A stretch of 64,000 nt of DNA from an uncultured Dehalococcoidia bacterium. GTDB taxonomy: Bacteria; Chloroflexota; Dehalococcoidia; Lucifugimonadales; GCA-2712585. How positions within the stretch are numbered: the first letter of the stretch is position 1; each line of letters opens with the position of its first letter. Made by a program: the position numbers and the translations under genes. Positions 1,183 to 10,200 of this stretch are shown piece after piece. The notes under the pieces are model-generated. The model saw only the letters and a list, made by a program, of their open reading frames with translations. It did no database searches and was not told the origin of the DNA. Where the stretch lies: NCBI GenBank assembly GCA_951812825.1, contig OX638324.1, forward strand, positions 1,051,141 to 1,115,140, given 5' to 3'.

Positions 1183-1422
1183 ATGGCGGAGGTTGAAGCG
1201 CCCGAAATTGTAGTCTACACCCATCCGGACTGTGGATTTTCTACAGCAGTAAAGATTGACTATAACAACCGGGGCATTTCCTTCAGAGAGATAGATATCT
1301 CGGTGCACCCGGAGGCGATACCGGACTTGGAGAGGTTGACGGGTGGGGAACGGACGACGCCGGTGATTGTGCGGGGTGATGAGGTGACCATCGGCTTCAA
1401 CGGAATTGGTTGAAGTTTTTAA
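1183..1422 (+). CDS. Glutaredoxin-like protein (CGFS site) ending U-S-F-stop if TGA 1411-1413 is read as selenocysteine
   Basis: Thioredoxin-fold pattern VVYTHPDCGFS...TTPVIVRGDEVTIGFNG. SD GGGAGG lies 8 nt before the ATG at 1183. The ORF track ends at TGA 1411, but AGT TTT TAA follows in frame and a hairpin follows that. Confidence 0.6.
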
Positions 1423-1424
1423 GC

Positions 1425-1443
1425 GTCGGGCCGTTGGCTCGAC
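1425..1443 (+). promoter_or_regulatory. SECIS-like hairpin candidate downstream of TGA 1411
   Basis: GTCGGGC-CGTTG-GCTCGAC forms a 7-bp stem including one G-U pair. It starts 14 nt after the TGA and has a G/U-containing loop. Confidence 0.4.
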
Positions 1444-5675: not shown

Positions 5676-5751
5676 TGGCTCCCGAGGCAGGACTCGAACC
5701 TGCGACCTAGCGGTTAACAGCCGCTTGCTCTACCAACTGAGCTACTCGGGA
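5676..5751 (-). tRNA. tRNA-Asn (GTT)
   Basis: The reverse complement folds as a 76-nt cloverleaf: acceptor TCCCGAG/CTCGGGA, anticodon loop CTGTTAA, T-loop TTCGAGT, encoded CCA. Confidence 0.9.
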
Positions 5752-5823: not shown

Positions 5824-6956
5824 TGTACTCGTTCAGTACATGTGAGACAGATTAGAAGGGACCAAGGATGGGTGGCACTGGAGAAGATACTGCAAAGGGG
5901 TTAGTCCGTCCAGGGAGTGATGAGGTCGGAAGGTGTCGTAGATTTGCTCCCATTTGAGCAGAGCCCGGTTGAGGGTAGAGACATCCAGTTCGCCATCATA
6001 GAGCTCGTAGAACTCTTCGGTATGAGTACGCTGGGCCCGCTCCACATGGCCGTTGAGCTTGGGAGAGCGCGGCGGCAGTATGAAGAGTTTGATATCGAAC
6101 TTCTGGCAAGCGGTCTCGAAGTCCGCCATGAACTCGGAGCCTCCATCCACCTGAACTGCCTTGATGGGGAAGGGAAACCGTCGCCGCATGGACTCAAGGA
6201 ACCGGGCCGCCAGTGTGGACGTGGCCCTTGTGTGCACCTCCAGCACGTCCCACCTGGAGACCATGTCCCGAGCGGTGAAGTGTTTGAGCACCATGCCAGG
6301 CAGAGGGCGCACGTCCAAAGTGTCCACCTGCACGATGTCCCCCGGTTCTATGACCTGATACTCCCTCGGCTTCCGTACCCCATAGGGACGCGGACGCGTG
6401 CGCCTACGGGCCGATATACCGTCACGGGGCGGCTCTTTCAACACCCCACGGGCCTTCAAGCGAGTCAGAATGCGGCCCACCATGGATGTGGACACCTCCC
6501 AGCCCTTATCCCTGAGCAACGGCGCCAGCTTGTCCTTCCCCCATCTAGGATACTCTTCCCTCAGCTTTAGCACTGCCCTAGCTAACTCAACAGTCCACGT
6601 AGGCCGCCTCACCCTCTTGGGTCGTCGACTCTTGTCTACTAAGCCCGCCGGCCCTTCCTCCCTGAGGGCTTTGTCCCACCGGTACAGGCTACAGCGTGAC
6701 AGTCCCAGTGCCTCTGCTGCTTCCGTTGCCGTCACTCCCCGTTGCCTCAATCTATTCCAGCCACTCACCCACCTCATCCGATCTTGCGCTTTCAACGTCA
6801 GCTGTGCTGGTGTCCTCTTCGAAAGCTGATAGAATGATTTGGGTAGTCCTACTACCCTCATGAAAGGGACCTCCTTCGGTCTATCTCACCCAAAGGATGG
6901 TCCCTTTCTATTTCCCTTACAACTCCATACGTCTCATATCTATCTGAACGAGATCA
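5824..6956 (-). mobile_element. IS481-family-like insertion sequence (copy 1)
   Basis: Imperfect terminal inverted repeats: TGTACTCGTTCAG...GTGAGAC at 5824 onward and GTCTCA...CTGAACGAGATCA ending at 6956. They enclose a single DDE transposase gene. No clear target-site duplication was seen. Confidence 0.7.
5833..6861 (-). CDS. IS481-like DDE (rve/integrase-core) transposase
   Basis: N-terminal HTH (ATEAAEALGLSRCSLYRW). Catalytic blocks VQVDTLDV, QVDGGSEF and PKLNGHVERAQRT. Confidence 0.85.
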   Translation of the reverse strand: MRVVGLPKSFYQLSKRTPAQLTLKAQDRMRWVSGWNRLRQRGVTATEAAEALGLSRCSLYRWDKALREEGPAGLVDKSRRPKRVRRPTWTVELARAVLKLREEYPRWGKDKLAPLLRDKGWEVSTSMVGRILTRLKARGVLKEPPRDGISARRRTRPRPYGVRKPREYQVIEPGDIVQVDTLDVRPLPGMVLKHFTARDMVSRWDVLEVHTRATSTLAARFLESMRRRFPFPIKAVQVDGGSEFMADFETACQKFDIKLFILPPRSPKLNGHVERAQRTHTEEFYELYDGELDVSTLNRALLKWEQIYDTFRPHHSLDGLTPLQYLLQCHPSLVPSNLSHMY

Positions 6957-6966
6957 GTGGGGGGGT

Positions 6967-7100
6967 CATTGCATGACGGCAGGTTTGGGGAGTTGGGCTT
7001 GGGGGGCATTGCGTGACGGCAGGTTTGGGGAGTTGGGCTTGGGGGAGGTGTTTGGTGTAGGCGCGTGGGTGACTGCGTGACGGCAGTCATTGCATGACGG
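6967..7100 (+). repeat. Tandem ~40-nt repeat (2 full units plus a rearranged third) abutting the IS end
   Basis: CATTGC(A/G)TGACGGCAGGTTTGGGGAGTTGGGCTTGGGGGG occurs at 6967-7006 and 7007-7045. A partial copy at 7071-7100 contains the palindromes GACTGC-GTGACG-GCAGTC and GTCAT-TGC-ATGAC. Confidence 0.8.
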
Positions 7101-7127
7101 GAAAGGATGTTGAGAACGGGGGTGGGG

Positions 7128-7242
7128 GAGGGCGGTTCGCTAACCGCCCCTACGAAAGATGGGAGGGGGAGTTGGGGTGGATCAGCGGCGAGACCCTTCG
7201 GCTGCGCTCAGGGTGATCTTTCCCCCATCGAGGGGGAAGAGG
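7128..7242 (+). repeat. Intergenic repeat cluster: modules B, G-run, A (diverged), C (short)
   Basis: GAGGGCGGTTCGCTAACCGCCCCTACG (B), GCGAGACCCTTCGGCTGCGCTCAGGGTGATC (A variant), TTTCCCCCATCGAGGGGGAAGAGG (C core). Confidence 0.7.
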
Positions 7243-7312
7243 CTTGTTGGCGTCCTTGACAGGGTCATTCAAAGGTCTCCATCAGGGGGAAAGGGTGAAG
7301 GAGAGGAGGGGG

Positions 7313-7321
7313 TGGTATAAT
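7313..7321 (+). promoter_or_regulatory. Extended -10 promoter element TGgTATAAT upstream of selD
   Basis: Perfect TATAAT at 7316-7321, preceded by TG at 7313-7314. It lies 27 nt upstream of the selD ATG. No good -35 was seen. Confidence 0.4.
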
Positions 7322-7347
7322 CGCTGCATCTTGAGATTCGGGAGTGG

Positions 7348-8397
7348 ATGATGCAGGTAGAGAGCGTTCGATTAACTTCGCTTGCCAATTGCGCGGGTTG
7401 AGCTTCCAAGTTCAGTCATGAAGACCTGGTGCAGGTCTTGGAGAAGCTACCCACGTTCTCGGACCCCAACCTGCTGGTGGGGTTCGAGTCGGGGGACGAC
7501 GCGGCGGTATACAAGCTGAATGACCGGCAGGCGCTGATATTCACGGTGGATTTTTTCCCTCCTGTGGTGGACGACCCGTTCTCCTTCGGGGCGGTGGCGG
7601 CGGCAAACTCCTTCAGCGACGTGTACGCAATGGGTGGAACGCCTATCTGCGCGCTGAACATTGTGGGGTTTCCGGTGGACCTGCCCAAGGAGATACTGTC
7701 GGAGATTATGCTCGGGGGATATACGAAGGCACAGGAGGCGGGTTGCCTGATAGCAGGAGGGCACACGGTGGACGACCAGGAGCCGAAATACGGGCTGGCG
7801 GTGGTGGGGCTGGTTGAGCCAGACCTGCAGGTCACGAACGCAGGGGCTCAAGCAGGGGACGTGCTTGTGCTGACGAAGCCCCTGGGGACGGGGATCATCA
7901 CCACGGCGGGGAAGCAGGGAGTGGTGGATGCTCAGGTGCTGGAGGAGGGAGTGAGGATTATGTCCACGCTCAACGCGTCGGCGTCGAAGGCCATGATGAA
8001 GGTAGGAGTGAACTCGGCGACGGACGTGACGGGGTTCGGGCTGGTGGGGCACCTGCGTGGGATGATGGCGGCGAGCGGGACAACGGCAAGGGTTGAGTTC
8101 TCGCGGGTGCCGGTGATTGACGGAGCGTGGGAACTGCTGGAGTCAGGAGTTGCGCCGGGGGGTACCCATCGAAATCTGGAGGGAGTGGGGAGCCAGGTTG
8201 CGTGGGATGGGGAGATTACTGGGAATCAGAGGTTGCTGCTGTGCGACGCTCAGACGTCGGGAGGGCTGCTGATTTCGGCGCCTGAGGGGTGTAGGGACGA
8301 CCTGCTGAGGGAGCTGGAAGCCCAGGGGGTTGAGGGATCAGTAGTTATTGGGGAGGTCCAAGAGGCGGGGGACTATCCGATAGAGGTAACGCCCTAA
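7348..8397 (+). CDS. selD: Selenide, water dikinase (selenophosphate synthetase), with in-frame TGA (7399-7401) read as Sec
   Basis: The ORF track starts at GTG 7429. The frame is open back to ATG 7348 except for one TGA, giving MMQVESVRLTSLANCAGUASKFSHEDLVQVL. This aligns with E. coli SelD [21 protein letters not shown], with U at the Cys17 position and K at the Lys20 position. The rest is typical SelD (DDAAVY, VDFF, GGHTVDD). Confidence 0.85.
7421..7439 (+). promoter_or_regulatory. SECIS-like hairpin candidate downstream of the selD TGA
   Basis: AAGACC-TGGTGCA-GGTCTT forms a 6-bp stem with a 7-nt loop containing GGU. It starts 20 nt after the TGA. Confidence 0.45.
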
Positions 8398-8597
8398 CCA
8401 CCGCCTACGGGCCGGACTATCTCCACGACGTCGCCCTCGGAGAGGGTAATTTCTTGGAAGCTCTCTTTTTCGATAACCTCACCGTTGTAGCCAACAGCGA
8501 TGAACTGGGTGGAGATGTCGAGGCTCTCCAGGTAGTTGACCAGACCCGTAGGGGCGGAAAGTTCCTTGGGCTTGCCGTTTATGGTCAGGCGAATCAT
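8394..8597 (-). CDS. thiS: Sulfur-carrier protein ThiS
   Basis: MIRLTINGK...VEIVRPVGGG has the C-terminal GG. Its ATG overlaps the thiE stop (ATGA). The 76-aa track ORF is trimmed to Met10. Confidence 0.8.
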   Translation of the reverse strand: MIRLTINGKPKELSAPTGLVNYLESLDISTQFIAVGYNGEVIEKESFQEITLSEGDVVEIVRPVGGG

Positions 8598-9253
8598 GCC
8601 GCCGCTCCTTGTGTTTTTTTCCATGCACTGCGGATATCGTGCTTGAGCTTACACGCCGTCTCCCCGGGTTGGAGCGACGAAAGAATGGCGCTAATGACGG
8701 CTACTCCCGACGCGCCTGCGCGGACAACGTCTGCGGCGTTTCGGGCGTTGATGCCGCCGATGGCGAGATAGGGGATGGTGAGTATAGGCTCCAGGCTCTC
8801 AATGAAGGACAGGCCTTGGGGAGACCGGCCCGGATGGGAGCGGGTGGAGAAGACGGAGCCGGCGATGAGGTAGTCGGCTCCCTGGCGTTGGGCCTCCAGT
8901 GCGCCCTCGTTGTCGTGGACGGAGCGGCCTATGAGCATATTGTCGCCGACCAGGGAGCGGGCATCGGATGGGCTTAGGGCTTCTTCGCCGAGATGAACAC
9001 CGTCGGCGTTAGCAAGGAGGGCAACGTCTATCCTCTCGTTGATGATGAGCAGGGCTTTATCGTCTATGGCGCGTCTGATGTTCATGGCCAAGTCGAGCAA
9101 GAGGCGTCCCGGGAGGTCTTTTTCGCGAAGCTGCACGATGTCTACTCCGCCTTCGACGGCCAGGGCAATCTTTTGGGGGAGGGATGAGTCCTGGCATAGT
9201 CGACGGTCCGTGACTATGCAGAGGGCCGGACAGGGAAAGGGCAGCCGAGACAT
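8594..9253 (-). CDS. thiE: Thiamine-phosphate synthase
   Basis: LCIVTDRRLC...VDIVQLREKD...IGRSVH...DYLIAGSVFST...AIGGI pattern. It abuts the thiG stop. Confidence 0.85.
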   Translation of the reverse strand: MSRLPFPCPALCIVTDRRLCQDSSLPQKIALAVEGGVDIVQLREKDLPGRLLLDLAMNIRRAIDDKALLIINERIDVALLANADGVHLGEEALSPSDARSLVGDNMLIGRSVHDNEGALEAQRQGADYLIAGSVFSTRSHPGRSPQGLSFIESLEPILTIPYLAIGGINARNAADVVRAGASGVAVISAILSSLQPGETACKLKHDIRSAWKKTQGAAA

Positions 9254-10045
9254 TTAATCAGGAGGCGCGACGGGTTGGGGAACGTCCTGAGTGGGGCTGC
9301 TGGCGGAGGCGTAGAGTCTCCGGGAGATACGACCTGCCAGGAAGGCGTTTCGTCCAGCCTCGACACCCTGGCGGAAGGCGGTTGCCATGAGGACGGGGTC
9401 GTGGGCCTGGGCGATGGCGGTGTTGACGAGGACGGCATCGGCGCCCATCTCGAGGGCCTGGGAGGCTTCGGAGGGTACGCCGAGGCCGGCATCTACGACG
9501 ACTGGAACGCGGGCTTGCTCAATGATGATGCGTATCTCTTCGACGGTGTGGATGCCCTGGCCGGAGCCGATGGCGGAGCCGAGGGGCATGACGGTTGCGC
9601 AGCCGACTTCCTGGAGCTGATGGGCCAGGACCGGGTCGGCATGGATGTAGGGAAGGACTACGAAACCTTCACTCACAAGCTGTTCAGCGGCCTTTAGGGT
9701 TTGGGCCGGGTCCGGGAAGAGGTACTTGGGGTCCGGAATGACCTCCAGCTTGACCCAGTTGGAGCCAGTGACGGAGCGTCCCAGCTTGGCGATGAAGAGG
9801 GCCTCCTCCATGGTTTGGCATCCGGCGGTGTTGGGAAGAACGTCATAGACGTTCCAGTCGAGGTAGTCGAGGATGGTCTTTTCGTTGGGGTTGTCCAGGT
9901 CCAGGCGGCGGATGGCGACGGTAATCATCCCGGTGCCGGAGGCCTCCACGGCGTGGACCATGTCGTCCATAGTGCGATACTTGCCGGTGCCGAGAATCAG
10001 CCTGGACGGGAAAGTCTTGCCAGCGATGGTCAGTTGGTCTTCCAT
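9254..10045 (-). CDS. thiG: Thiazole synthase
   Basis: [23 protein letters not shown]...[12 protein letters not shown]. The start is trimmed to Met46 of the track ORF because the upstream 45 codons cover the riboswitch. Confidence 0.85.
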
Positions 10046-10107
10046 GATGCGCCTCAGAAACCCGCAAGATAAGAGCAAATGGTGAAGGGCTGAGGTTGAG
10101 TGAACCA

Positions 10108-10200
10108 TGATTCCTACGCCGGCATTATCCGGTTCAGGTTCAAACGGTCGCCCTCCGAGAGGGCCTCTCAGCCTGTCCAACCAGGCTCCCGTGGGGTGTA
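10108..10200 (-). promoter_or_regulatory. TPP (THI-box) riboswitch
   Basis: The minus strand reads CACGGGAGCCTGG...GGCTGAGAGGCC...GACCGTTTGAACCTGAACCGGATAATGCCGGCGTAGGAATC, which contains the conserved CTGAGA and ACCTGA.C.GGATAATGCCGGCGTAGGAA blocks. Downstream, CCTCAG can pair with the thiG SD region CTGAGG. Confidence 0.85.

Follow-up and report, generated by a model that had tools for sequence, protein, structure and literature searches.

In the window (the whole stretch of 64,000 nucleotides analysed here), the list of open reading frames contains a selD entry at 7429..8397, which starts with GTG and codes for 322 amino acids. Reading of the plus strand over the region 7200-8600 revealed two adjacent ATG codons further upstream (7348-7350 and 7351-7353), and the sole in-frame stop between them and the listed frame is a single TGA. 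The list opens selD at GTG 7429 because it cannot pass this TGA. The first-pass annotation had described a frame running from ATG 7348 through one TGA into the listed ORF and had quoted the peptide obtained when the TGA is translated as U, MMQVESVRLTSLANCAGUASKFSHEDL; both the frame and the peptide were reproduced. Its remark that the TGA-containing gene was missed by the ORF track is true, although this track is only a mechanical stop-to-stop list. The features of the locus and the related genes are collected in Table 1.

Table 1. Features of the selD locus, its neighbours and other candidate selenocysteine (Sec) genes; positions are those of the window unless a genome coordinate is given.
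Feature	Position	Strand	Remark
Glutaredoxin-like gene	1183-1422	+	ends ...GIG-U-S-F-stop; TGA 1411-1413 three codons before TAA
Hairpin of the glutaredoxin-like gene	1425-1443		GUCGGGCC-GUU-GGCUCGAC; begins 14 nt from the U of UGA
tRNA-Asn	5676-5751	-	adjoins the transposase ORF
IS481/rve-family transposase ORF	5833-6861	-	HTH and integrase core; directly upstream of selD
Probable extended -10 element of selD, TGgTATAAT	7313..7321	+	TGnTATAAT in relatives
Shine-Dalgarno-like GGGAG	7340..7344	+	6 nt before ATG 7351; GGAG/AGGAG at the same spacing in relatives
selD CDS (predicted)	7351..8397	+	348 aa, Sec as residue 17, stop TAA 8395-8397
Cys14 codon TGC	7390..7392	+	makes C-A-G-U (CxxU) in the N-terminal loop
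UGA, predicted Sec17 codon	7399..7401	+	at the E. coli Cys17 position
Lys20 codon AAG	7408..7410	+	catalytic-loop lysine
Putative bacterial SECIS hairpin	7421..7439	+	stem AAGACCTG (7421-7428) with CAGGTCTT (7432-7439), loop GUG (GTG, 7429-7431) or GGUGC (7428-7432)
thiG-thiE-thiS	8394-10180	-	ThiG, TMP-TENI and ThiS domains
Possible intrinsic terminator GCCCTC-GGA-GAGGGT with T-rich tail	8433..8447	+	pattern scan only
TGA-bearing DUF3179 paralogues	genome C1:918144-919055, 2360008-2360931, 2364976-2365899		outside the window

Searched against SelD profiles, the read-through protein gave a full-length match to TIGR00476 with 381.5 bits (cut-off 125) and a match to NF002098 with 363 bits (cut-off 299). 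Profile position 1 of TIGR00476 falls on residue 8, i.e., the match begins 5' of the TGA. The top structure match was E. coli SelD, PDB 3u0o (residues 4-337, E = 1.6e-77). In this alignment, U stands on Cys17 and the lysine on Lys20, which bears out the placement of the TGA at the Cys17 position made in the first-pass annotation. The lysine had also been assigned to its proper place, but it follows Sec by three residues (U-A-S-K) and not by four. In the same pairwise alignment, E. coli residues D51, D68, N87 and D91 are identical in the selD product, and the motifs RDDAAVY, TxDFF, NxxSDxxAMGG and TDVTGFGL are kept. In the E. coli structure, these four residues and TDVTGFGL belong to the ATP/Mg-binding residues of the PurM-like fold, and mutagenesis of the E. 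coli enzyme has shown that the Cys17-Lys20 loop is needed for SelD activity. A collection of 15 billion proteins contained no exact match to either the truncated or the full-length SelD.

A six-frame search for selD was carried out in 40 relatives of the same genus, family and order. The gene is present in 38 of them, each time with exactly one in-frame TGA, and the matches reach query residues 1-7. The two remaining relatives (G013 and G034, 90% and 85% complete) gave paralogue-level hits only; lost selenium use or an assembly gap could explain this. One relative (G022) has two TGA-bearing matches, at C3:95653-96660 and, at a contig end, C31:2-832; the second is either a duplicate or contamination. 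The TGA occupies the same codon in all 39 selD genes of the order, in the context ...[C]-A-G-U-A-[S/A]-K-F. Lys20 is likewise invariant (39/39, as AAG or AAA), and a cysteine encoded by TGC or TGT stands three residues before Sec in 37 of the 39. A wider set of 80 loci, drawn from a collection of genomes at species level, spans Dehalococcoidia, Clostridia, Syntrophomonadaceae, Nitrospinota, Actinomycetota and others; 78 of these loci have TGA at the Sec17 codon and two have Cys.

Within the coding sequence, a hairpin that reads AAGACCUG-GUG-CAGGUCUU as RNA begins 19 nt downstream of the UGA. A hairpin 3' of the TGA had been noted before, and this part stands; its 6-bp stem does not, since the structure has 8 bp with a 3-nt loop or, alternatively, 7 bp with the loop GGUGC. 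The fold z-score of positions 7390-7470 taken as a single sequence is -0.87, which is not significant, so the single-sequence fold is not evidence by itself. Among random TGAs of the genome, 7% are followed by a hairpin of at least 8 bp at the same position, and 2.5% additionally carry GU in the loop. The significance of the selD hairpin rests on comparative data, the single sequence not being beyond chance. Scanned at E <= 10 with Rfam, whose models may not include this type of bacterial SECIS, positions 7000-8000 gave no SECIS family; the hits obtained (SAM-IV with 17.7 bits, a lncRNA) are attributable to chance.

In 24 relatives that share the register of the window, 97.3% of the stem positions are paired, against 14-50% when the partner strand is slid by one to three columns. 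One of the eight pairs covaries: A-U is replaced by G-C in five sequences, and both codon changes, GAA to GAG for Glu and TTG to CTG for Leu, are synonymous. Five pairs are invariant, and in another only one partner changes (A-U to G-U); one pair is unpaired in 4 of 23 sequences. The codons of the stem are nearly fixed, with GAC for Asp +8 in 38 and CTG for Leu +9 in 36 of the 39 selD genes of the order, whereas the Leu codons 5' of the TGA use five to six synonyms. Val +12 is GTC in 24 of 24 sequences of this register, while the Val codon of the loop is free to vary. Synonymous variation is therefore suppressed inside the hairpin stem. Most of the 39 genes have GUN or GGUNC as the loop, and three members of the window's own group (G014, G025 and G024) have GGN. 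A smaller hairpin that contains the UGA itself, UGAGCU-UCCA-AGUUCA, was examined as a possible lower stem of the SECIS but discarded, because the lysine codon AAA in 12 of the 39 genes breaks a C-G pair without compensation.

The register of the window (AAGACCUG-GUN-CAGGUCUU) is used by its own family and by five others. In a more distant group of 15 genomes from 13 families, the hairpin lies 6 nt further downstream and reads CUGGCGCAG-GUG-CUGCGCCAG (comparison of relatives G020-G040, with window positions 7421-7445 as the reference). This shifted hairpin is 94.8% paired and has five of its nine pairs changed on both sides, a value reached by none of 500 shuffles. Here it is the +10 codon that is part of the stem and covaries, while the variable loop is formed by the +12 Val codon; relative to the register of the window, the two Val codons have exchanged their loop and stem roles. 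Both registers lie within the otherwise conserved coding stretch E-D-L-x-Q-V-L; one genome (G026) can be folded in either register, and another (G030) is intermediate, with one mismatch. It is about as likely as not that, within this order of Dehalococcoidia, the selD SECIS has two alternative positions, 6 nt apart and excluding each other, and, provided that both are SelB sites, slides along the coding sequence.

The genome is metagenome-assembled and consists of a single contig of 2.47 Mb. A genome search recovered selA (550 bits) and a full-length selB (349.7 bits), and a tRNA-Sec scored 75.7 bits against Rfam RF01852, all above the cut-offs; ARAGORN reported it as tRNA-SeC(tca) of 97 nt with an 8-bp acceptor stem. 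The first-pass annotation had stated that selA, selB and selC lie outside the window, and this is where all three were found. Four further genes with an in-frame TGA accompany them. Three of the four DUF3179 (PF11376) paralogues have one such codon, in the context U-x-x-C (WUPLC, YUTLC), and the fourth has none; each of the three TGAs is followed at +16 by a hairpin with G-U in the loop. Taken with the glutaredoxin-like gene of the window, these genes have hairpins of 6-8 bp at +14 to +16 with the loops CGUGU, UGGUUUU and CGUUG, and thus share the design of the selD loop GGUGC. The proposal that the organism uses Sec is borne out by this set of selA, selB, tRNA-Sec(UCA) and TGA-containing DUF3179 and glutaredoxin-like genes. 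Conservation, covariation and the likeness to the other candidate hairpins of the genome support the assignment of the selD hairpin as a SECIS. A naive scan for TGA read-through yielded 169 candidates in the window, and a genome-wide scan with a codon-usage filter gave no discrimination, the 17-codon upstream block of selD scoring about zero.

TGA terminates 552 of the 1,698 frames of at least 300 codons in this genome and is therefore still a normal stop, with no genome-wide reassignment. This bears on the alternative that survives best, though it is quite improbable: the UGA could be read mainly without Sec-tRNA(Sec), by a near-cognate Trp or Cys tRNA or with Cys carried on tRNA(Sec), which would place Cys17 or Trp17 in the protein. 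The self-dependence of a Sec-containing SelD does need some bootstrap, and other systems are known to misincorporate amino acids at UGA when selenium is limiting. Such reading sits poorly with a full Sec machinery, a conserved SECIS and a TGA that otherwise terminates; if Cys17 were intended, TGC or TGT would be simpler, yet TGA is found in 39 of 39 genes.

Translation of the region 5' of the TGA was assessed from the same alignments. Three residues, Leu -9, Thr -8 and Leu -6, never change in the 39 selD genes, although six, four and five different codons, respectively, encode them; since the residues stay constant despite this synonymous turnover, the stretch is translated. The start at ATG 7348 in the first-pass annotation is a possible alternative, but the conserved start lies one codon downstream: ATG 7351 is invariant in the alignment of 20 relatives and is preceded by GGAG 6 nt upstream. 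With this start, Sec becomes residue 17 and the lysine residue 20, and the likely product is a protein of 348 aa with Sec17 and Lys20.

These data also weigh on the notion that the TGA is a true stop and that the gene starts at GTG 7429, the upstream match being a relic. The mechanical ORF list does yield a shortened SelD of 322 aa, but such a protein would lose the Sec/Cys17-Lys20 loop. The codon at 7429 is GTG, GTA, GTT, GTC, GGT, GGG or GCG in the relatives and is not kept as a start; reading of the sequence before it found no motif comparable to a Shine-Dalgarno sequence; and it forms the loop of the hairpin 7421-7439. The 16 codons before the TGA are, on the contrary, under protein-level purifying selection, with ATG 7351 and its Shine-Dalgarno sequence conserved. 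Homologues, close and distant, do not begin at the equivalent of 7429, as all 39 keep the N-terminal loop together with the TGA, and the added N-terminal peptide is preserved as protein while its codons change synonymously. The conservation of the TGA combined with selection on the upstream peptide rules out that the TGA arose by nonsense mutation or assembly error and that translation starts downstream, and the shortened gene deserves hardly any credence. That the TGA is a nonsense mutation or assembly error in a selD pseudogene, a suspicion that a metagenome-assembled genome and an IS481-type transposase directly upstream might raise, is just as hard to credit and is effectively refuted by the comparative data, the same TGA codon being shared by 38 independent relatives and by 78 of 80 loci of several phyla. 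The rest of the frame is intact, there is no other selD, and the genome retains selA, selB, selC and other TGA genes, all of which need SelD.

It is very probable, then, that selD of this genome encodes a Sec-containing SelD in which the UGA specifies Sec17. According to the E. coli paradigm, SelB·GTP·Sec-tRNA(Sec) would bind the hairpin with the UGA positioned in the A site, the 19-nt spacer would hold the stem outside the ribosome, and Sec would be inserted at the UGA in place of termination. In the resulting enzyme, Sec17 and Lys20 of the flexible glycine-rich loop would act with the Asp/Asn ATP-Mg site to convert selenide and ATP into selenophosphate. SelA would then use selenophosphate for the conversion of Ser-tRNA(Sec) into Sec-tRNA(Sec), and this cycle, already known for Sec-type SelD, would sustain itself. 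The genome search found neither a second SelD nor a selenouridine synthase (selU). As the sole selD of a genome without this synthase, the gene would serve selenoprotein synthesis; as the only SelD, it would depend on its own product.

The protein shares with E. coli SelD (3u0o) the family, the full-length architecture, the glycine-rich loop with Lys20 and the Asp/Asn ATP-Mg residues. The two differ in that E. coli has Cys17 (G-A-G-C-G-C-K) where Sec stands here (C-A-G-U-A-S-K), and the E. coli gene needs no SECIS. The second cysteine is at -3 here and at +2 in E. coli SelD, which has Gly at the -3 position. Among the other types, Sec-SelD of the Clostridia type is without a second cysteine, and the Actinomycetota and E. 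coli types have it at +2 (U/C-x-C-K). Speculatively, the lineage-typical CxxU context might provide a protective selenenylsulfide in the SelD loop. In the crystal structures of Aquifex aeolicus SelD (PDB 2zod/2yye), where Cys takes the place of Sec, the loop SSGCAAK aligns at the same place. Sec-containing SelD proteins of Aquifex, Clostridia, Syntrophomonadaceae and Nitrospinota have the UGA at the same codon and the loop ...G-U-A-[AS]-K, and their genes are typically shortened by gene callers. Only the CxxU context, typical of Dehalococcoidia, and the sequence and register of the hairpin set the present gene apart from them.

The selD hairpin is in keeping with bacterial SECIS elements as described in the literature, but a comparison with the SECIS of E. 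coli fdhF shows a different geometry. The G-U of the fdhF loop lies 23-24 nt from the U of its UGA; in selD, the corresponding distance is about 31-32 nt, and no bulged U is evident. More than one class of bacterial SECIS elements is recognized (PMC9312934), and a comparable stem-loop just 3' of the UGA inside the coding sequence is recorded for the Acetomicrobium SelD in BSepDB.

Sec-containing SelD of prokaryotes has been catalogued (PMC1794560, PMC4561486; BSepDB, PMC13326102), and its self-dependence has already been discussed (PMC1794560). No bacterial selenoproteins are more widespread than FdhA and SelD, and Sec-decoding organisms without a Sec-containing FdhA possess a Sec-containing SelD (PMC1794560). 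The genome fits this rule, since its Fdh-alpha-like gene (a sub-threshold match to TIGR01591) is without TGA. Misannotation of SelD is a known and routine problem, and published surveys count Dehalococcoidia among the selenoprotein-richest bacteria. The SelD described here is of an already known kind, and the result is an annotation correction and not a discovery; with Sec-type SelD and its self-dependence known for decades, no new question is opened, and the two SECIS registers and the CxxU context are only mildly new details. For the genome itself, a standard-code reading makes selD seem to be without its catalytic loop, so that the pathway could be scored as defective or the gene as a fragment. 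Once the Sec codon is recognized, the system of selA, selB, selC and selD is complete, and other TGA-interrupted genes, such as the DUF3179 paralogues and the glutaredoxin-like gene, are flagged as real.

As for the flanking signals, the sequence TGnTATAAT is located about 30 nt 5' of the ATG in 14 of 20 aligned relatives, including all genus members, and the corresponding element of the window is the probable -10 element of the selD promoter. A simple sigma-70 scan found no -35/-10 pair for the gene. In the sequence 5' of the -10 box, the window differs from most genus members, which have a CTCCTCAATAC motif there. At the other end, the terminator pattern scan gave two sites against 1.0 expected, and the one listed in Table 1, which lies inside the convergent thiS ORF, is a weak candidate for a selD terminator. 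The thiamine operon thiG-thiE-thiS is convergent with the 3' end of selD, and the stop of thiS overlaps the selD stop region.
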